Origin: Candidatus Thorarchaeota archaeon
Lineage (GTDB): Archaea; Asgardarchaeota; Thorarchaeia; Thorarchaeales; Thorarchaeaceae
Direction of reading: 5' to 3'
Assembly (NCBI GenBank): GCA_003345555.1
Contig: PRDJ01000052.1
Location: 1 to 24,507, forward strand
DNA length: 24,507 nucleotides
Part shown: positions 6,786-20,182 of the stretch, piece by piece
How positions within the stretch are numbered: position 1 is the stretch's first letter
Layout of the letters: each line of letters starts with the position of its first letter
Notes under the pieces: model-generated
Told to the model about the DNA's origin: nothing
What the model saw: only the letters and a program-made list of their open reading frames with translations
Databases searched by the model: none
Position numbers and translations under genes: made by a program

Positions 6786-8228
6786 TCACTCTGTAGATGT
6801 CGGTTGTGAATCTTCGAGAGCGCCGACTCGTTGGAGGTATCGAGACCGCGTTCTTATTCCGTTCAGCATTTGGACCGCTTCCTCTATCGTGTCCCCGACG
6901 GGGATGCCATTCAACTCGAAACCTCGTATGATTATATCGTACTTCTCGAGGTCCGGCACGTAAGAGACAACCGTTCTGTTGTGGCGCTTGACGACCGCCG
7001 CAACCTTGGCCCCGATTTGCAGAGAAATGCCGGGCGCGTATGGCAAGAGCAATAAGAGGGCCGCGTCAATGTAGTCGATTGCCAGCATCTTGTCTAGGAC
7101 ATGTTCAAAATCAGCATCGGTGGCGCTTCCGGTCAGGTCACATGGGTTCCTGAACGAGGCGATATCTTGGTAAGCAGGAGTCATGACTGCTCGCATTGCC
7201 TCTTGATCTTCGCTTGAAAACGGGGGAATTTCGAGTCCATAGAGGGCAGCTTCGTCCGTGGCTATCACTCCGTGGCCACCACTCACTGTCAGAGCTCCTA
7301 CACGCGGGCCCTTCATAGGGATTGGCTCGAAGGAGAAAACCTTTGAACAGGCCATGAGATGGTCCTCGTCACGAGCCTCTATGACTCCGAACTGTCTGAA
7401 GGCTGCTGAAGCAACAACCGAACTGCCCCCTAGGGCAGACGTATGACTCATTGTGGCTCTGTGTCCTGCTTCTGATACGCCTCCCTTGTAGACAATTACT
7501 GGTTTCTTTGTAGCGTATCTGGCGCAGGCCTCCACAAATTCCCTTCCTTCGTTCTCTCCGAAGCCTTCTAGGTATGCGACTATGACCTTCACATTCTTTT
7601 CATGCTCGAAGTGGTGAACGAAGTCTGTTACTTTGGTTTGAGCGGCATTACCAATTGAAACCGCAGCAGCGATCCCCACATCGCGTTTTGAGAATTCTTC
7701 CAAGCGTTCAACGAGCCAGCCTCCACTCTGCGATATGATTGCCACGCTTCCCCTTCTGGGTCTTGCAACACGTTCCGAGGGAAGAAAGAACGTGTCAAGG
7801 GTATCAGGGACAAAGACGCCAATGCAGTTCGGACCCACGAGGGAAATCTCAAACCTGTTCGCGATATCCACAATCTCCTGCTGCAGCTTGATTCCCTCTT
7901 TTGTCTGGGTTTCACTGAAGCCGCCTGAAACGACCACAACTGCTTCTATACCTTTGTTACCGCATTCCTCGAGTACTGAGGGCACAGATATTGCAGGGAT
8001 GGATATCACGGCAAGATCTATGTCATCAGGAGCTTTGGTGATCGAGGGGTAGACTTGCACACCCTCCACATCGCCGCCCTTGGGGTTGATAGGATAGGTC
8101 TTCAGTGCATTCTCAAATGCTAGCTTGCGGAAGATGACGTTTCCAGGAGAAAAGACATTCGAGGTCGAAACACCAATGACTGCCGCGACTCGAGGGTTCA
8201 GCAACTTATGAAGGCCGGTCATGACCAA
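6786..8228 (-). CDS. acdA: ADP-forming acetate/acyl-CoA ligase, alpha subunit (CoA-binding domain + ligase domain)
   Basis: YPINPKGG, DLAVISIP, SGGFSE, GPNCIG, SQSGG, SIGN, YLEG, phospho-His motif ATMSHT and NPCDLTG. No ATP-grasp beta domain is fused. Confidence 0.88.
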   Translation of the reverse strand: MVMTGLHKLLNPRVAAVIGVSTSNVFSPGNVIFRKLAFENALKTYPINPKGGDVEGVQVYPSITKAPDDIDLAVISIPAISVPSVLEECGNKGIEAVVVVSGGFSETQTKEGIKLQQEIVDIANRFEISLVGPNCIGVFVPDTLDTFFLPSERVARPRRGSVAIISQSGGWLVERLEEFSKRDVGIAAAVSIGNAAQTKVTDFVHHFEHEKNVKVIVAYLEGFGENEGREFVEACARYATKKPVIVYKGGVSEAGHRATMSHTSALGGSSVVASAAFRQFGVIEARDEDHLMACSKVFSFEPIPMKGPRVGALTVSGGHGVIATDEAALYGLEIPPFSSEDQEAMRAVMTPAYQDIASFRNPCDLTGSATDADFEHVLDKMLAIDYIDAALLLLLPYAPGISLQIGAKVAAVVKRHNRTVVSYVPDLEKYDIIIRGFELNGIPVGDTIEEAVQMLNGIRTRSRYLQRVGALEDSQPTSTE

Positions 8229-8304: not shown

Positions 8305-9375
8305 TCACAGCTTCATCTGGGAGAGCACTTCTCTGAGTCTAGGCTCAGCAAGTATCGCATGGTGCAGTTTCGAAAGAAGCTTTGTGATTTCGGCGTAGAT
8401 GACTTGCCGTGCAGGTTCTGTTGCGTGTGTCGCTTCTTGGAGTGCTTCCTCACATCGCTGGTTGATTCTCTTGATAAGTCGTTTCTCTAGCTCAGGTCCT
8501 CCCCATCCAAATCCGTCGAAAGCAGTCTGTGCTTCAGAAATCTTGTCTTCGACGTTTGGCATCTGTCCTCTCAGCAACTCATCTAGCCCTGAGAAGTACT
8601 TGGCCACCGCACGTTCGAGCCTTTCTGTCTCGCTTGCTTCAAGAGTTGTCTCATGGGCTCGTTTGCTGTATAGGTCTTGGAGCAACCTTGCGCCAGGTGC
8701 CTCAGTGAGGAGGGTTTTGATAATCTTGACCATGTATTCAGCAGGCAGCTTGATGGCTTCCTCCATCAATGGCGAATCTGACCGATATCTGTGGAGCTCC
8801 CGGTTAGCCTCAAGCCAAAAGACTGGGAGTAGGACATGGCAGCGTTTAGAGTACTGGTCGATGATCTGTTGGGCTTGGCTAACGAGTCCCCATTGGTCGT
8901 CTTCAATATCGACTCGCTTGTAGACCTCCTTAGCTTTCGCAACGGCCGTCTCATATAGTGGGAGTGTTGGCTGCGTTTCCACTAGGGGAATCGCGGCTTG
9001 GGGATTCGTGGGCATGGCTTGCTGACGGACCGTGGTCTCGTCGAGGAAAGACAGTATTTCCTGCGTCGGATGACGACCCGCTTCAGCCGCCTTGGCTTTC
9101 TCAGACAGTTTGGGAAGGAGGCTCTCCAGCTGGGCGAGCCTTTTAGCTATGAGACCCATCATGTCTGCAGTACTCTTGGGAATGCCCTCCATCGACATCG
9201 TGTCTTCCATCCATTTCCTTGCGCGCAGAAGTCCCTGAGTCAGAGAGTCAACCCTGTCAGGGTCAACGCTTCCCTCGACCTGAGAGGAGAGTATGAAATG
9301 GATGAGTGTAGAATTGAGAGTCTCTATCAAGAGGAGTCTGTCGACAAGTTCGTCCATACGCAGAGGTTCGGTCAA
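8305..9375 (-). CDS. Hypothetical alpha-helical protein (N-terminal helical bundle, P/Q/T-rich linker, C-terminal helical domain)
   Basis: 356-aa ORF with TTG start and GGGGGTG RBS, 16 nt downstream of the tubulin-like gene. No recognisable catalytic motif. Confidence 0.8.
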   Translation of the reverse strand: MTEPLRMDELVDRLLLIETLNSTLIHFILSSQVEGSVDPDRVDSLTQGLLRARKWMEDTMSMEGIPKSTADMMGLIAKRLAQLESLLPKLSEKAKAAEAGRHPTQEILSFLDETTVRQQAMPTNPQAAIPLVETQPTLPLYETAVAKAKEVYKRVDIEDDQWGLVSQAQQIIDQYSKRCHVLLPVFWLEANRELHRYRSDSPLMEEAIKLPAEYMVKIIKTLLTEAPGARLLQDLYSKRAHETTLEASETERLERAVAKYFSGLDELLRGQMPNVEDKISEAQTAFDGFGWGGPELEKRLIKRINQRCEEALQEATHATEPARQVIYAEITKLLSKLHHAILAEPRLREVLSQMKL

Positions 9376-9391
9376 TGTGACACCCCCAATC

Positions 9392-10777
9392 TTACTCTAG
9401 TGTGCCGCCTTCCATGTAGTAGCTGAACAGCTCACGGAAGTCATTGATAGCAGTCACAAGTTCCTTTCTTGTCGTTCCCTTTGATCTCATGAACCAGCTC
9501 TGCTTCAAGGCAGAGGGTCCGCTGTGCAGATTCACAAGTTGGGTTGCTTCGTTAATGAGCTGAACCAGCTCTGGTATCTTGGGTAATCCCAGCAGAAGCA
9601 AGAGCTTCACGATAGGCTCTGGACCCTGGTGCTGAACATAGCATGGTGTAATTGCGGCACCAGGAGCTATGTACTTGTCGAGAGCCTCCTTGATGTGCAT
9701 CCCATACTCTGCCTTCGAAATATGCCTCGGCCCATCGAAGACGTAGTAGACACTCTCGGCGTTCGGGGTGTCTCCGACGTCAGCGTAAGAGCACTGAGTT
9801 ACTGCGTAATCAATCATTGTTCGCAGCTGTCTTGGCATGCTGCCTGCATCGGGAATCAGTCCAATATCATTGTAGAGAGCGGGCACAACGACTGGATCCA
9901 GCTTCCTTGCATAATCGGCGAGATCTGTTGTTGGAAAGACGTCCTTTTCAGGCTCATAGACTCCCGGTGATAGCATTGCTTCAATCACATCAAGCGCGAG
10001 AGGGTTGACGAGTTCCACAAATGCTTGCTCTGTTCGAGTCTCAAGCTCACTGCTTCCGCCATCGACAGTACTCGGAACCATCTGCTCTATTGACTGAACG
10101 TTGGCGACATCGACGTCAAGTTCCTTTGCCAAGTAGTCGACACTGTCTCCCCTTCTCCATTGAAGGATTCTCTTGAGCATGGTTCTATTGCTGAGGAGTA
10201 TTGTAAGATCTGCACCACGTTCCTGTAGCTGAGCTCGAAGAAGTTTCGAGACAGCCCATATCGAGTTGAGAGCTTCACTGGACTGTCCCTCAAATGGCAG
10301 CACACCTATGACGTATACGAAGATTCGTCTTCCCTCTTCTTCCTGAAACTTCTGCTTGAGAAGCTCGATGATGGCCGGCGTACCACCACAACCAGTACCA
10401 CCGCCCAGACTGGTGAATATGCAAAATCCGGAGACTCCTTCGAAGCCCAAGTTTGTGAGCTGGTCGAAGATGATGTCCTTCGATTCCATGACAGCATTAT
10501 AACCGTCCATGAATCGACCACCGACACCGATTTCGCTTTCTCCATAGAGGAGCGTGTGCTCCTTTGGTATTCCGTATTTCTGACGGACCTTTGTGAGATC
10601 TGAGCGGTCCGTATTCAAGAGCAGATATCCACGAACTCGAGAAGGTAACTTCTTGTCTTCGCTAGCTTTCAGGTACGATCCAACTATATTAGAGCCACAT
10701 TCACCAATCCCAATTGCGAACATCTCCGCAGCTTTACCCAATTCCTCGTCTGCGCCTTTTCCCTTGGTCTTCTGCAT
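9392..10777 (-). CDS. Divergent tubulin/FtsZ-superfamily GTPase (CetZ/FtsZ-like, not canonical FtsZ)
   Basis: T1 IGIGECGSNI, T2 NTD, T3 GVGG, T4 signature LGGGTGCGGTP (10405-10382), T5 VLPFEGQ, T6 LSN, H7 LVN and T7 TTDLADY. AGGAG RBS before ATG. Confidence 0.92.
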   Translation of the reverse strand: MQKTKGKGADEELGKAAEMFAIGIGECGSNIVGSYLKASEDKKLPSRVRGYLLLNTDRSDLTKVRQKYGIPKEHTLLYGESEIGVGGRFMDGYNAVMESKDIIFDQLTNLGFEGVSGFCIFTSLGGGTGCGGTPAIIELLKQKFQEEEGRRIFVYVIGVLPFEGQSSEALNSIWAVSKLLRAQLQERGADLTILLSNRTMLKRILQWRRGDSVDYLAKELDVDVANVQSIEQMVPSTVDGGSSELETRTEQAFVELVNPLALDVIEAMLSPGVYEPEKDVFPTTDLADYARKLDPVVVPALYNDIGLIPDAGSMPRQLRTMIDYAVTQCSYADVGDTPNAESVYYVFDGPRHISKAEYGMHIKEALDKYIAPGAAITPCYVQHQGPEPIVKLLLLLGLPKIPELVQLINEATQLVNLHSGPSALKQSWFMRSKGTTRKELVTAINDFRELFSYYMEGGTLE

Positions 10778-10795
10778 TCGCCTATTCTCCTGTAG

Positions 10796-13486
10796 CTATC
10801 CTCTCTTTTCCAACATTGTTGCCACGAGCTCTTTTACAGCCCAAGACAAGTAAGAACTGATATCATCCCTCGAGTAAGTCTCCTTGATCTTCTTGATGGC
10901 CTCCTCAACGAACTTCTGCCGCTGGTCAGAGCTAGCACCAGGGCTGAAACCAGCCATGTACATCTTCAGGCTCTTGTGCCATTCATCCATCTTCTCCGCC
11001 TTCTCAATCCAACCCTTGCGGAGTTCCTTGATCTGGTTGAAAAGCTTCAGAGCGTCGTCAAGCATACGAGCCGACGCCAAGTCTGACTCCATCTTCTTCA
11101 TCTTATCAAGTGGGTAGATGAGGTTACTGAAATCTTTCGGATGTTTTTCATACACTCGTTCGATGGTCGAATAGTACTTGCTGCGTTCTTTGAGAGTTTT
11201 CTCGTACTCCTGACGGTCCTTGTTCGAAATGCTCTTGATCATTGCTATCATTTGTTCCTGAATATTGGCGAGTGTCAGGCAGACTTCGAGTGACTCATAG
11301 ACATGCTTTGGTTGCGATGCGAGCTGGTCCGGAACCTTTTCGATGAGGGCCTTGAGATTGCTGACCGAATCTCCCATGCCCTGCTCTTCGAAGGTTGCGA
11401 TTGCGTTGTTGATTTGAACGTACGCTTCAGAAGCTCGGCTCTTAATCTTCTGCAGAACAACCGGAGAAGTCGTTAGCTTCTGTAATCTGTCAAAGGATTC
11501 GGCCGCTCCCTCAAGTTCCTGAGGGGGTTCGGATCTTAGGTCCGCCAAGATCTGAAGTTCCTTGTCGAGATCCACACCTATGCTTCTGGCCTTACTGAAT
11601 GACGTTTCAAGATCTGTAACCTTGACCATAAGCAGCTCGATGACCTTTGAGGAGATTTTTTGCTCGTAAACCTCAATCATCTTGCGTGCGACCGCAGGTA
11701 AGCTGAAGACGGTCTCTGCAACAACACCAATGTTGTTGAGTTCCGCGATTCCCTCTTGTACCTCTGGAGGAATCTCAACACCCGATCCCATCAGCTTTGC
11801 AGCTGCAAGTCTGATTTTGACACCAAGTCTGTACCTGAGGTTCTCAAGCGCCTCCTTTGCCATAACCAGAATTGTGTCCTTGATGTTCCTCATCTCAGAC
11901 CTGATTTCTGCGAATTCCTTGAGTTTCTGCAGTTTCTGCTTGCCCTCCTCCAGCCTCTCAGTGATTGGCACGAATATCTCCGCGTAGACTGGCTTTATTG
12001 TCTGGAGGTCCTCGATGATTGCTTCTATCTCCTGATTGCAGGCGTCACGGAACGTGGCCACTCCACTGTCCACGGCTTGCTTAAGTTGACCCAAAGCCTG
12101 AAGCAGGTATAACGTGCTTCCGCTTTGCAGTTCTTCGACTTTGGGTGCCTTCTTGCTAAGCTGGGCATAGTCCAGAACACGGTCTGCAGAAGTTGCCAGT
12201 TCATTGAACCGTGCTAGGTACGACCGTATCTTCTCGGTGATGAACTTGCGCTGTTCATCCTCCATCGTCCTAGCTTTCAGATAGATCCTTATCATTGCGT
12301 CAATATCTGCCTTGTCCAATTGAGACCTTGAGTCGGAAAGGAATTGCTTCACGGCTGGCAAGTCTTTGATGCCCGCATCTGCAGGAACCTCAGCTGCCTT
12401 GTCTATTTGTTGTAGAAGATCCTCAGTCCTGTCCTTCAGTGCGATTCTAACCTGGCCTGTCCACTCCGCCATTCTTCCCAGAGACGATAGCAGACTCGAA
12501 ATATCCAGATTCTCAATTCCTGCGACAGGTGCTTGTGGGATTATGTCTGCGGTAGTAGGGATGCCGCCTTCTACAATCTTGGTCGTCACTTCATGCTTTA
12601 TGTTGATTATCCTGTCCCTAAGCATGTTGGCCATTTGAGTCCTGACAGACTGAAGTTGATTATCGAGGCTCATCAAAGTTGTCAGATTAGTTGCCTTGCC
12701 GGCATCTCTTGCGAGGACACGAAGCTTCTGGCTGAAGTCCATGGGCAGCTCGAGACCGAGCTTTGATGCAGTCTCAACAGAAACAGAGAGAGAATCGATG
12801 TCTGAAACAAGGTGGACTGAAAGCATGCGACTAACTTCGTCCTTTCTGCTGTCGAGATAAGTCCGCTCTGCTTTCAGTCTCTCCAAGAGAAGAATCAGAT
12901 TCATGACTGAGAGGCTGGAAATATCGTCGGTGGATGTAGTCGTAGCAACCTCGCCTGTGTCGATACTGACATGCCTCTGGTAAGTCTCTACAGTGCGCTT
13001 GTTTTCGTCGAGTAAGGTCCTGGTCTCTCTAGAGATTTCTTGATGCAAAGCTACAGAGCGCTTGGAGAAGGTCTCGGCAAAGCCATATAGTTTCTGGAAG
13101 TCTTCGGGATTACCAGCTGCAATCGATGGAAAACTCAAGGTGGCAATCGCCTTGGCCTCTTCTGGCTTGATTGCTTGCAGTTTGGGTAGGATCGCTATGA
13201 CATCCCGCTGCTCCTTCTTGAGAAGGTCAGCGAAATCCCTGACAGTCCTCATGAAGTAATCTTGGAGTTCGCTAGCGACTTTCTCAACTTGTGCCTTCAC
13301 TTTACCCTTCTTCAGCATTCCAGCTGTTGCGGCTTCATTCTCGAGCTTGCTAAAGTTGGCAAAGATGTCATAGAGGTGACGCGTTTGCCTTTCTGTCTGC
13401 TCCTCCAGTGAAGGGTTGACTGAAATGAGCATGGCTTTCATTTCTGCGAGCTTGTCGAGCTGTAGACGCCATTGGTGACTATCCAA
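10796..13486 (-). CDS. 896-aa all-alpha helical-repeat / coiled-coil rod protein
   Basis: Long uninterrupted ORF rich in L/E/K/A with heptad-like spacing. No TM segment or NTPase motif. TTG start with GGAGG at 13498-13494. Ends 18 nt before the tubulin-like gene. Confidence 0.85.
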   Translation of the reverse strand: MDSHQWRLQLDKLAEMKAMLISVNPSLEEQTERQTRHLYDIFANFSKLENEAATAGMLKKGKVKAQVEKVASELQDYFMRTVRDFADLLKKEQRDVIAILPKLQAIKPEEAKAIATLSFPSIAAGNPEDFQKLYGFAETFSKRSVALHQEISRETRTLLDENKRTVETYQRHVSIDTGEVATTTSTDDISSLSVMNLILLLERLKAERTYLDSRKDEVSRMLSVHLVSDIDSLSVSVETASKLGLELPMDFSQKLRVLARDAGKATNLTTLMSLDNQLQSVRTQMANMLRDRIINIKHEVTTKIVEGGIPTTADIIPQAPVAGIENLDISSLLSSLGRMAEWTGQVRIALKDRTEDLLQQIDKAAEVPADAGIKDLPAVKQFLSDSRSQLDKADIDAMIRIYLKARTMEDEQRKFITEKIRSYLARFNELATSADRVLDYAQLSKKAPKVEELQSGSTLYLLQALGQLKQAVDSGVATFRDACNQEIEAIIEDLQTIKPVYAEIFVPITERLEEGKQKLQKLKEFAEIRSEMRNIKDTILVMAKEALENLRYRLGVKIRLAAAKLMGSGVEIPPEVQEGIAELNNIGVVAETVFSLPAVARKMIEVYEQKISSKVIELLMVKVTDLETSFSKARSIGVDLDKELQILADLRSEPPQELEGAAESFDRLQKLTTSPVVLQKIKSRASEAYVQINNAIATFEEQGMGDSVSNLKALIEKVPDQLASQPKHVYESLEVCLTLANIQEQMIAMIKSISNKDRQEYEKTLKERSKYYSTIERVYEKHPKDFSNLIYPLDKMKKMESDLASARMLDDALKLFNQIKELRKGWIEKAEKMDEWHKSLKMYMAGFSPGASSDQRQKFVEEAIKKIKETYSRDDISSYLSWAVKELVATMLEKRG

Positions 13487-13529
13487 ATGCCTGCCTCCGT
13501 GTAGTACGGCTGAAAGTCTGGACTCTGTG

Positions 13530-13538
13530 TTTATTAAA
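13530..13538 (-). promoter_or_regulatory. Putative TATA box (TTTAATAAA) of the rod/tubulin-like operon
   Basis: AT-only tract in a GC-richer intergenic region, 44 nt upstream of the TTG start. The spacing fits a short leader that contains the GGAGG RBS. Confidence 0.5.
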
Positions 13539-13729
13539 CCAATGTGGGATTAAACCCCGAGTATTCCAATCTCACTGCCTCATATGTCCGTAATCTCGGA
13601 AAATCAGAACGGCAGGCAAGGGAAGCTTGGCCTCTGCGTTGAGTGAATGGTCTTACTACATTGGGAGCTAAGAGCGACTAGTGATTTGGGTCGAGAAGAT
13701 TGCAGCTTTCATGTAAGTGTTTAGCTCGA

Positions 13730-14365
13730 TTAGCTGGCATCTCCGTCATCGAGGTCCCCATCCTCTTCCTCGGATGCAAGGACTTCGCTTCGGACATACT
13801 CAAGCCACTCTTCACTCTCTTCCTCAAGCATCGGTTCAATCGAGAACGCGTACTCGGCCGCATCCAAAGCGGAATCGTAGTCATCGTTCAGGAAGTGACA
13901 GACTGCATAGTTGTACCATGTTGTTGCCGAGTTTGGATCGAGAAGCAATGCTCTTTCGAAGGCATCCATAGCTTCATCCAACTCCTCGTTGAGCATGAGA
14001 GTTATCCCGAGCAACTGCCAGTCGCGTGCGTTTCTGGGACTGAGCCGCAGGCTTTCTTTTAGTGCCTTGATTCCTTCAAGGTCCTCGTTCAGGAGCAGAT
14101 GGAGGTAGGCTTTGTCCGCCCAAATCCTGCCGGTCCTCGGTGCAAAAACGAGGATATGGTCGAGCGCTTCTATGGCCTTCTTGGGTTGCCTGAGCTCGAG
14201 ATTGCACACCGCAACTTGCTCCCAAGCCTTCACGTTCGTGGGTTCAACAGACAATCCCCGTTCTAAAGTGGCTATTGCGGCATCGAATCTCCGTTTCCGC
14301 ATCAGGGCTGCTGCCCTGTCTAGGAATCGTTCGATTCGTGATGAGATAGTGCTGATTTGAACCAC
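13730..14365 (-). CDS. Tetratricopeptide-repeat (TPR) protein with an acidic C-terminal tail
   Basis: About 5 TPR units (A...LERGLSVEPTNVKAWEQVA, ALRLSPRNARDWQLLG, ALLLDPNSATTWYNYA) and the tail EEEDGDLDDGDAS. Confidence 0.9.
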   Translation of the reverse strand: MVQISTISSRIERFLDRAAALMRKRRFDAAIATLERGLSVEPTNVKAWEQVAVCNLELRQPKKAIEALDHILVFAPRTGRIWADKAYLHLLLNEDLEGIKALKESLRLSPRNARDWQLLGITLMLNEELDEAMDAFERALLLDPNSATTWYNYAVCHFLNDDYDSALDAAEYAFSIEPMLEEESEEWLEYVRSEVLASEEEDGDLDDGDAS

Positions 14366-14538: not shown

Positions 14539-16020
14539 TTAAGGTGTCCATCCAGTCATCTCGATTCTGACTATGTGGCTTAACAGAAGAGCTCCCGGCG
14601 TCACAAGTACGAGCGGGTAGCTCGGGGGTAGCAACAGTTCACCGTTGACCCAGCCTGCCACCACTACGACGTTGGTCGTCATGTCACTAAGCAGCTGATC
14701 AGATGTGAATGTGACGTTGTTGCCAAGCGAGTCGTGCAAAGTCACATTATATCCCAAGACCGCAAGTGTGGTGTTGAATTCGTAGTGGGGCGTGTTGTTG
14801 CCACCGTCGAATGATGCGACTATATCCCATAACGTGGCACCCCAGTACACATCTGGCCCGACTGTGATTGCATGACGATGATGCAAACAGGACGCCATAG
14901 AGTAGTAATCGCTGTGAGGCATCCTCCACGATTGCACACCCTGCAGAGTAAGTAACCAGGGCGTAACCTCGTCTATGAGAGTGATGTTTACGACAAGCTT
15001 GGCCCACCAAGAGCCGTCGGTTACGTACCCATCCTTGTTGAGTATGGCCATTCTTAGAGGTCCAGAACCGCTTATCAGAGCAGTCCCGTTTGCTTCGTAA
15101 GCCACGATGAGCGTACAGTTCACTATTCCGACTGAGCTGCCGTCCGTCTTATTGTATCCTAGGAAACGCCCTTCCACATTAGTCCGGTTGAACACGGTCT
15201 CATATGCATCCGAGCCAATCACTCTGAGACTGTAGTTGGCGGGAAGGGTGCCGCTAAGTATCAACAAATCGAGCACTGCGACTCCGGTGTAGTTGGCTAT
15301 ACCTGTGATGTTTCCACTGGATTTTTTGTATCCGCCCCATCCTGAGATTGCAGGCAGGCTCATGAGCTTGCTCATACTGTAGTTTGTCAAGTGGCCTCCG
15401 GCCTTGACCGAGAGGACGATGGGCGGCCTGTTTGTGACTTGGATCATATCTACGTTAGAGACACACTTTGGTCCAGCTGCCCCGGTGTAGAAATCTGACT
15501 CAAACACGCCTGCCCCGTCTGTATTATTGAAGTAGCCATCTAGTGGGAGGAACATGATTCTGAAGCCATCGGTCCAGGTTGGTACCTCTGTACCATTGTA
15601 CGAGAACGCCAAGACCATGTCGCCTTGGAGGCTGTATCCGGTTGAGTTGGGGTAGACGTTTAGATAGCTGAAGGTCTGATTGTAACCATCTGTGGCGTTG
15701 ATGAATACCAGCTGGTTGGTGGCCATGCCGTCGGCAAGCTCGACCAGGTCTGCTATCTTTACTCCCTTATACTCGCCCGATCCGCGAACGTTGCCGTATG
15801 AGTTCTGGAAAGACGCATTCCTCGTGATTACATTCATGTTTTTCATATCACTGAGCGTCACGACGTGAATTGACCCGTCACTGCTAACAACTCGCACGGA
15901 AGGACCTGTGGACGATGTTGGTTGTTGCATCAGAATAAGAACTGCCGTGGCAGTGCCAGCTATCACGATGACGACTGCTAGTACTGCGTAAAGCTTGGTC
16001 TGGCTTGTGCCTGAGCTCAC
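14539..16020 (-). CDS. Membrane-anchored surface glycoprotein with three tandem molybdopterin-oxidoreductase (SUOX/MsrP)-fold-like repeats
   Basis: N-terminal TM/signal (LYAVLAVVIVIAGTATAVLIL). Three repeats of Y.GV.I.DL...DGY/DAY...LA...NG....GP.R....K.V..I. 19 N-x-S/T sequons counted. Confidence 0.7.
   Translation of the reverse strand: MSSGTSQTKLYAVLAVVIVIAGTATAVLILMQQPTSSTGPSVRVVSSDGSIHVVTLSDMKNMNVITRNASFQNSYGNVRGSGEYKGVKIADLVELADGMATNQLVFINATDGYNQTFSYLNVYPNSTGYSLQGDMVLAFSYNGTEVPTWTDGFRIMFLPLDGYFNNTDGAGVFESDFYTGAAGPKCVSNVDMIQVTNRPPIVLSVKAGGHLTNYSMSKLMSLPAISGWGGYKKSSGNITGIANYTGVAVLDLLILSGTLPANYSLRVIGSDAYETVFNRTNVEGRFLGYNKTDGSSVGIVNCTLIVAYEANGTALISGSGPLRMAILNKDGYVTDGSWWAKLVVNITLIDEVTPWLLTLQGVQSWRMPHSDYYSMASCLHHRHAITVGPDVYWGATLWDIVASFDGGNNTPHYEFNTTLAVLGYNVTLHDSLGNNVTFTSDQLLSDMTTNVVVVAGWVNGELLLPPSYPLVLVTPGALLLSHIVRIEMTGWTP

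Positions 16021-18004: not shown

Positions 18005-20182
<2,178 letters not shown>

Follow-up and report, generated by a model that had tools for sequence, protein, structure and literature searches.

What is a divergent tubulin/FtsZ-like GTPase gene doing between the genes of two helical proteins in a Thorarchaeota genome, and do the three belong together? The genes in question lie on contig PRDJ01000052.1 (contig 52) of a Candidatus Thorarchaeota genome (2.28 Mb, 93% complete); the whole stretch that was analysed, 24,507 nt in length, is called the window here. A preliminary description of this DNA had taken the three genes for a self-contained filament system, in which the GTPase polymerises, one helical protein acts as a scaffold or cross-linker and the other as a regulator. 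Listing and translation of the open reading frames (ORFs) resolve the interval into three minus-strand ORFs in the gene order A-B-C:

10796-13486, minus strand: gene A, 896 aa, TTG start
9392-10777, minus strand: gene B, the GTPase, 461 aa, ATG start
8305-9375, minus strand: gene C, 356 aa, TTG start

The A-B spacer is exactly 18 nt (10778-10795) and contains AGGAG; the B-C spacer is exactly 16 nt (9376-9391) and contains GGGGGTG. The layout first described, i.e. three same-strand genes with gaps of 18 and 16 nt and a ribosome-binding site for each, was verified in its coordinates and spacers. Gene order, distribution and phylogeny support the conclusion that A-B-C is a self-contained, co-inherited module around a tubulin-superfamily GTPase.

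A scan in which a single genome represented each prokaryotic species found relatives of B in 119 genomes, and 80 loci were retrieved from it; with added loci, 86 were analysed. In every locus with enough flank, a homolog of A lies directly upstream and a homolog of C directly downstream of B, on the same strand. With ORFs called from the first start, the gaps mostly range from a few to about 30 nt, and apparent 4-nt overlaps occur in some Borr/Sif-type loci. The order is also kept in the three most divergent families sampled, as well as in Heimdall/Hod and 'Asgardarchaeia' contigs. When the ORFs of the 86 loci were clustered, A, B and C formed the only clusters found in all four lineage groups. 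The next clusters, among them an acdA-like one and one of TPR proteins, are essentially confined to Thorarchaeota, and the flanks in general are conserved within Thorarchaeota and change between lineages. Of the Thorarchaeota loci, 41 have a TPR homolog near the trio, usually with another gene in between; the other lineages have none. No ESCRT or membrane protein conserved beside the trio across lineages was found in this clustering.

Profile searches with A, B and C against 400 Asgard species genomes, 90 of them of high quality, gave matches in 129, 124 and 123 genomes, respectively, and for each gene in 32 of the 90 high-quality genomes. The same families are positive for all three genes (74-76/85, 20-22/22, 15-16/19, 5/5 and 4/4) and the same families are empty for all three (0/135, 0/31, 0/14, 0/12 and 0/12); the few mismatches in presence fall in fragmented assemblies. 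The co-occurrence and synteny on which the original proposal turned were thus both observed in Asgard genomes. When a tree was built for each of A, B and C, the same five lineage groups emerged every time, with Shimodaira-Hasegawa-like approximate likelihood-ratio test (SH-aLRT) support of at least 99; as these groups were partly defined from B identity, the test is independent for A and C only. That the gene trees follow the lineages argues for vertical chromosomal inheritance and not for carriage by mobile elements. Between lineages, B is 51-57% identical where A and C are about 20-28% identical. B thus evolves far more slowly than its two neighbours, a pattern to be expected if contacts in a polymer constrain it.

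B passes the threshold of the Pfam Tubulin family (PF00091; 71.6 bits against a cut-off of 33, E 1.3e-19), its residues 19-202 covering profile positions 2-187 of 190. A Pfam search at E up to 1 returned only Tubulin and Tubulin_2 for B, with no match to FtsZ_C, Tubulin_C or CetZ_C (PF21011), and the FtsZ equivalog TIGR00065 was matched at 32.1 bits (cut-off 295.2) over the N-terminal part only. Two motifs of the GTPase were located in the window:

10382-10405, minus strand: nucleotide-binding signature GGGTGCGG of B, residues 125-132, invariant in 16 homologs of 51-86% identity
9914-9931, minus strand: T7-loop motif TTDLAD of B, residues 283-288, with T284, D285 and D288 invariant in the 16 homologs

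The signature is of the GGGTG[ST]G type, with Cys replacing Ser/Thr. The T1 loop GIGECGSN and the Asn of T6 (N197) are also invariant among these homologs, which range from Thor to Heimdall/Hod. The acidic positions of T7, assigned in B by the position of the motif, activate GTP hydrolysis across the subunit interface in polymers, the corresponding motifs being NVDFAD in FtsZ and NVDLTE in tubulin. With the Pfam threshold passed and the signature, T1 and T7 intact, the earlier call of a divergent tubulin/FtsZ GTPase holds: judged by its sequence, B is a member of this superfamily with intact nucleotide-binding motifs.

Which branch of the superfamily is it? In a comparison of the B family profile with all PDB sequences, CetZ ranked first (4b46, 4b45 and 3zid; E 1.2e-10 to 1.4e-6), followed by OdinTubulin and Lokiarchaeal AtubA (about 6e-5) and then by eukaryotic tubulins; the matches to tubulins as a whole lie at E about 6e-5 to 3e-4, and every match is limited to the N-terminal domain. 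Language-model features of B are also nearest to CetZ (0.94), with TubZ-like and viral tubulin clusters at 0.91-0.93. The family stands apart within a set of 1.84 billion cluster representatives: it comprises two full-length representatives and fragments, and outside these a single relative, P0247, was found (E 9e-40), the rest being at about E 1e-16 or weaker. By the tests run, B is neither FtsZ nor CetZ nor a true tubulin.

A CetZ-related, Asgard-only clade was named Asg.Tub in 2023 by Santana-Molina et al., who defined it from four sequences (OLS26264.1, PWI48967.1, KXH77455.1 and OLS30664.1), two of them from Thorarchaeota, and called its distribution sparse (PMC9871819). The tree of that study joins Asg.Tub weakly to Halo.Tub (support 62) and keeps it separate from both the CetZ clade and the tubulins, and the study's C-terminal CetZ hidden Markov model did not match it. 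The neighbouring genes were remarked to be unknown and mostly coiled-coil, and the genomic contexts were called unrelated (PMC9871819). OLS26264.1 is identical to our homolog P0114, which is full length and 52% identical to B (E 2.9e-146), and the published C-terminal alignment of Asg.Tub shares the motifs PTTDLADYARKLDPVVVP and LGLPKIPEL with B. The identity of P0114 and the common C-terminal motifs indicate that B is a member of the Asg.Tub clade. The name Asg.Tub appears in no other paper of the literature that we searched; nor did this search yield a paper that joins Thorarchaeota with CetZ, a description of the A-B-C operon or of the two partner families, or experimental work on Asg.Tub (purification, imaging). 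The impression of the preliminary description that the combination is not a described system therefore needs to be divided. The GTPase family was already known; the strict trio, its wide lineage-specific distribution and the two partner families are undescribed as far as we found. Compared with Asg.Tub as published, the family occurs here in about 31% of Asgard species genomes, is near-universal in some families and is always accompanied by A and C.

The two partners matched no Pfam or NCBIfam family. AlphaFold2 folds A into helices only, about 35 in number, and many of these span 30-45 residues. The model has a mean predicted local distance difference test score (pLDDT) of 86.8 and a predicted template-modelling score (pTM) of 0.39; this pairing of a high pLDDT with a low pTM suggests that the bundles are well formed but that their arrangement relative to one another is uncertain. 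Fold searches with this model returned only helical-module surface-protein rods and assorted helical bundles, and the Z scores obtained for A and C, 11 at most, are inside the noise range quoted for helical proteins. The N-terminal 110-145 residues of A weakly matched long helical bundles, among them BAR/I-BAR-like ones (Z 7.4-8.1). Chains like GCP/Spc97, PRC1 and EzrA stood at non-significant ranks in one fold search with A and were absent from another, and no specific match to EzrA or spectrin rose above background. In a language-model atlas A retrieved its own family alone and C retrieved nothing, and no relatedness between A and C was detectable by hhalign (E 0.46). A, B and C are all acidic (isoelectric point, pI, of 5.9 for A and 5.5 for C) and soluble by prediction; no transmembrane segment was found in any of the three, the highest 19-residue Kyte-Doolittle mean being 1.55. 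Sequence and model together point to A as a new Asgard-only all-helical family, for which no solved fold beyond generic helical bundles was matched.

The best-conserved segments of A are residues ~110-215 and 770-896. Residues 329-536 of the Thor protein align at two separate places in Heimdall/Hod A, and comparison of the A profile with itself gave weak off-diagonal matches (probability 83-93%), a hint of internal repeats. This double alignment and the off-diagonal matches suggest that the rod of A grew by internal duplication. In Heimdall/Hod, A exceeds the Thorarchaeota protein by about 270 residues (L004:3480-6989 compared with window 10796-13486).

The model of C has a pLDDT of 81.6 overall and shows a three-helix bundle (residues 7-99), a disordered linker (116-147, pLDDT <50) and a confident all-alpha domain (150-356, pLDDT >90). 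In the homolog alignment this C-terminal domain holds invariant residues, including an EAP triplet and a G...E.R motif. Searches of the PDB (Foldseek), AFDB clusters and further structure sets with the model of C gave no specific fold match, only generic helical bundles; beyond the C family itself, AFDB contributed only weak hits (E 4e-3 to 2e-2), in which uncharacterised proteins matched the C-terminal domain. All database homologs of C are annotated 'hypothetical protein' and all come from Asgard archaea, and C appears to be a new Asgard-only helical family. One database record (P0130) starts six residues later, at an ATG; the homolog alignment favours the TTG start. A prediction of the B-C complex reached a score of 0.02 and a mark of 0.32 and was counted neither for nor against binding.

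Upstream and downstream of the trio the window contains the following features:

13494-13498, minus strand: Shine-Dalgarno-like site GGAGG of gene A, invariant in 12/12 aligned Thorarchaeota upstream regions
13530-13538, minus strand: TATA-like box TTTAATAAA, about 45 nt upstream of the gene A start, probable operon promoter
13730-14365, minus strand: TPR protein of 211 aa, directly upstream of the A-B-C operon and on the same strand
6786-8228: acdA-like CoA ligase, the next gene after C, preceded by its own TATA-like string CATATAAG

In an alignment of 12 Thorarchaeota loci, the TTTAATAAA box corresponds to a conserved block of the CAGAACACACT-TAAGATA type, in which T13536 and T13537 never vary. 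Across the 12 aligned upstream regions GGAGG, the TTG start and the two T's of the box do not vary and the remaining spacer does, which makes the call of promoter and ribosome-binding site better than chance. Both TATA-like elements of the preliminary description, the one upstream of A and the separate one ahead of acdA, were thus recovered, and so was its remark on missing ftsZ neighbours: no sepF, secE/nusG or ribosomal gene lies near the trio in the window, and the two canonical FtsZ genes and the SepF gene of the source genome sit on other contigs. The A-B-C locus itself is surrounded by housekeeping genes. In other genomes, Arf/Ras-family small GTPase genes were seen near the trio in two distant lineages (L006:3532-4113; L004:1-37), which may be chance; in an 'Asgardarchaeia' contig such a gene lies directly upstream of A.

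How could such a module work? We consider a GTP-driven filament of B with two dedicated partners, A and C, to be a rather probable arrangement. B would bind GTP and most likely assemble head-to-tail into protofilaments, in which, as with FtsZ, CetZ and tubulin, each subunit would insert its T7 loop to complete the GTPase site of its neighbour. Since the T7 acidic residues act only across a subunit interface, their invariance argues for a longitudinal contact, and in combination with the intact motifs and the high conservation of B it makes GTP-dependent protofilaments the simplest reading. A would be a long soluble protein of tandem helical bundles, whose length and modular build suit bundling, spacing or anchoring, and the bundle-linker-domain layout of C would suit an adaptor or regulator. 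The tight conserved operon suggests that both are made along with B, probably in matched amounts, and that they act on its polymer, which they may bundle, anchor, nucleate or cap. As FtsZ1, FtsZ2 and SepF are encoded elsewhere, B would be an additional system and the module likely serves something other than core division; we infer a cellular role in cell shape or internal organisation rather than in division.

Several points weigh against a B filament served by A and C. The Asn found in the T7 loop of FtsZ and tubulin is replaced by Thr in B. Between T6 and H7, the 16-homolog alignment shows an insertion of variable length, about 45 residues in B, which corresponds to the insertion that had been noticed in the GTPase at the outset. 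Sequence methods place only the N-terminal GTPase domain of B in known families and not its C-terminal half (~290-461). That B polymerises and that A and C physically bind it we infer from the operon and the motifs described above, and co-transcription of A-B-C as one operon is likewise suggested by spacing and conservation. The names 'scaffold' for A and 'regulator' for C are guesses, neither protein having a recognisable functional domain. Of the self-contained filament system originally proposed, the co-inherited module around the GTPase stands; polymerisation of B, cross-linking by A and regulation by C are putative, and no fold or family match assigns a role to A or C. In addition, several genomes of one Hodarchaeales-type family carry a second copy of A and B in which no C homolog was detected, so that the core function may be able to do without C.

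The evidence also bears on other roles for the trio. B filaments and A could form a membrane-remodelling or protrusion-shaping module, a sub-case of the filament reading that we find doubtful, if worth keeping in mind. The FtsZl1/FtsZl2 families, and artubulin with Snf7, have been proposed to shape membranes, and cultured Asgard archaea show long protrusions. Superfamily members outside FtsZ, e.g. CetZ, often act in shape control (PMC9856176). The weak BAR/I-BAR-like matches of the A N-terminus and the Arf- and RagA-type small GTPase genes beside some copies of the trio would fit such a role as well; however, the BAR-like matches are within helical-protein noise, A, B and C have no transmembrane or clearly hydrophobic segment, and no ESCRT or membrane protein is conserved beside the trio across lineages. 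An unlikely alternative to a filament is that B does not polymerise and works as a GTPase switch, or that it belongs to a stable complex with A and C, in a Misato-like or tubulin-cofactor-like manner. The great divergence of the family, recognisable by sequence in its N-terminal domain alone and isolated among all cluster representatives, would agree with this, but the invariance of both T7 acidic residues and the very high sequence conservation of B would not.

It is quite improbable, in our judgement, that the trio segregates DNA or plasmids in the manner of TubZ/TubR/tubC (type III partition) or PhuZ, with B as the motor filament and A or C as the DNA adaptor. The TubZ and PhuZ systems are likewise small operons of a divergent tubulin homolog and dedicated partners, and B lies near TubZ-like and viral tubulin clusters by its language-model features; yet A and C, both acidic, match no helix-turn-helix (HTH), winged-helix or other DNA-binding family of Pfam or NCBIfam, the locus is set among housekeeping genes with flanks conserved in Thorarchaeota, and the lineage-following trees speak for vertical inheritance. 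The idea that the adjacency of the three genes is mere conserved local gene order with no functional link is strongly disfavoured and hardly credible, as the flanks change between lineages where A-B-C stays fixed, the phyletic patterns match family by family, the trees are congruent, and little DNA separates the genes, which in some lineages appear to overlap slightly.

Returning to a filament of B with dedicated partners, the closest solved family by profile is CetZ, and B resembles it also in being an extra paralog alongside FtsZ1 and FtsZ2. B differs from CetZ in having no CetZ_C match and in occurring in Asgard archaea rather than Euryarchaeota, and we know of no comparable fixed partner operon for CetZ genes. 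The BtubA/B-BtubC and TubZ-TubR(-TubY) systems are alike in co-encoding a divergent tubulin homolog with dedicated partners, which in the BtubA/B-BtubC and TubZ-TubR operons stabilise the filament or couple it to cargo. The partners themselves are unrelated, A and C having neither a TPR domain match, as in BtubC, nor an HTH domain match, as in TubR. Unlike BtubAB, A-B-C contains one tubulin-like gene and not a heterodimer pair; unlike TubZRC, it lies on the chromosome and is inherited vertically. The TPR gene upstream of A-B-C recalls BtubC, the TPR protein ('kinesin light chain-like') that partners bacterial tubulin, but this gene accompanies the trio in Thorarchaeota only and mostly one gene apart. 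FtsZ with EzrA, SepF or ZapA belongs to the same GTPase superfamily; A resembles EzrA only as a long protein of stacked helical bundles and, unlike EzrA, has no membrane anchor. The true tubulins of Asgard archaea (OdinTubulin; AtubA/B; the alpha/beta-tubulin of Heimdallarchaeales) are Asgard members of the superfamily encoded in short operons as well. They are distant from B (E ~6e-5, N-terminal domain), which lacks Tubulin_C, and they are found in about 1% of Asgard genomes, compared with about 31% for the A-B-C module.

In this trio, archaea closely related to eukaryotes probably possess a filament system that is as yet unstudied. We regard it as an evenly balanced question whether A-B-C goes further and forms a complete Asgard-specific cytoskeletal machine, i.e. 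an Asg.Tub filament with two partners of previously unseen fold, which would predate the Thor/Hermod/Borr-Sif/Hodarchaeales-type split and act alongside FtsZ, Lokiactin and, where present, true tubulins. If so, the lineage from which eukaryotes arose would have a third system of tubulin type, and prokaryotes would offer an example of a tubulin-like polymer that has associated proteins dedicated to it. The module is some thirty times commoner than true tubulins in Asgard genomes and near-universal in several lineages. As A and C have no known relatives, they could reveal a new control of a tubulin-type polymer, and the operon consists of three defined proteins that can be directly expressed and tested.

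The second, paralogous copy seen in the Hodarchaeales-type family consists of A' and B', in this order, with lengths of about 1140 and about 444 aa. Two such loci were delimited:

L087:7920-13678, minus strand: second locus of genome G067
L088:2562-8331, plus strand: second locus of genome G072

Just upstream of A' a conserved 311-aa protein is encoded (77% identical between G067 and G072), and in L088 a convergent gene at the 3' end encodes 740 aa that include a Gtr1/RagA-like GTPase domain.

The nearest tubulin-like proteins outside the B family, P0247, P0256, P0260 and P0261 (loci L092, L094, L097 and L098), were checked for neighbours with homology to A or C, and none was found, with one weak exception: the C profile matches the 262-aa gene after P0247 over 36 residues in the FDWG...LEKR region of C (E 7e-4, probability 26% by hhalign). 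P0247 itself (L092:7001-9149, on a 17-kb Logan contig) follows pyrD/pyrK-like genes, has no A-like gene beside it and overlaps the 262-aa gene. No P0247-like protein was found in the 400 Asgard genomes at E <=1e-60, in a search that had no positive control and shows little. P0260 and P0261 (L097:191-6637; L098:1328-13233; L099), from metagenome contigs, lie in tight same-strand clusters with large neighbours. In one cluster type, proteins of 358 and 701 aa are encoded before the tubulin-like gene and one of 672 aa after it; in the other, two Tubulin-domain genes have neighbours of 86, 369, 705, 1033, 395 and 948 aa. Three of the P0260/P0261 neighbours were compared with A and C and were not detectably related to them.

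Two further ORFs of the window, apart from the trio, drew our attention. At 18050-20182 on the plus strand this archaeal genome encodes a complete NAD-dependent DNA ligase of bacterial type, with adenylation, OB, zinc-finger, HhH and BRCT domains, and an ORF of 493 aa on the minus strand (14539-16020) shows a weak partial match to a molybdopterin oxidoreductase domain (E 1.3e-7, about 70 residues).

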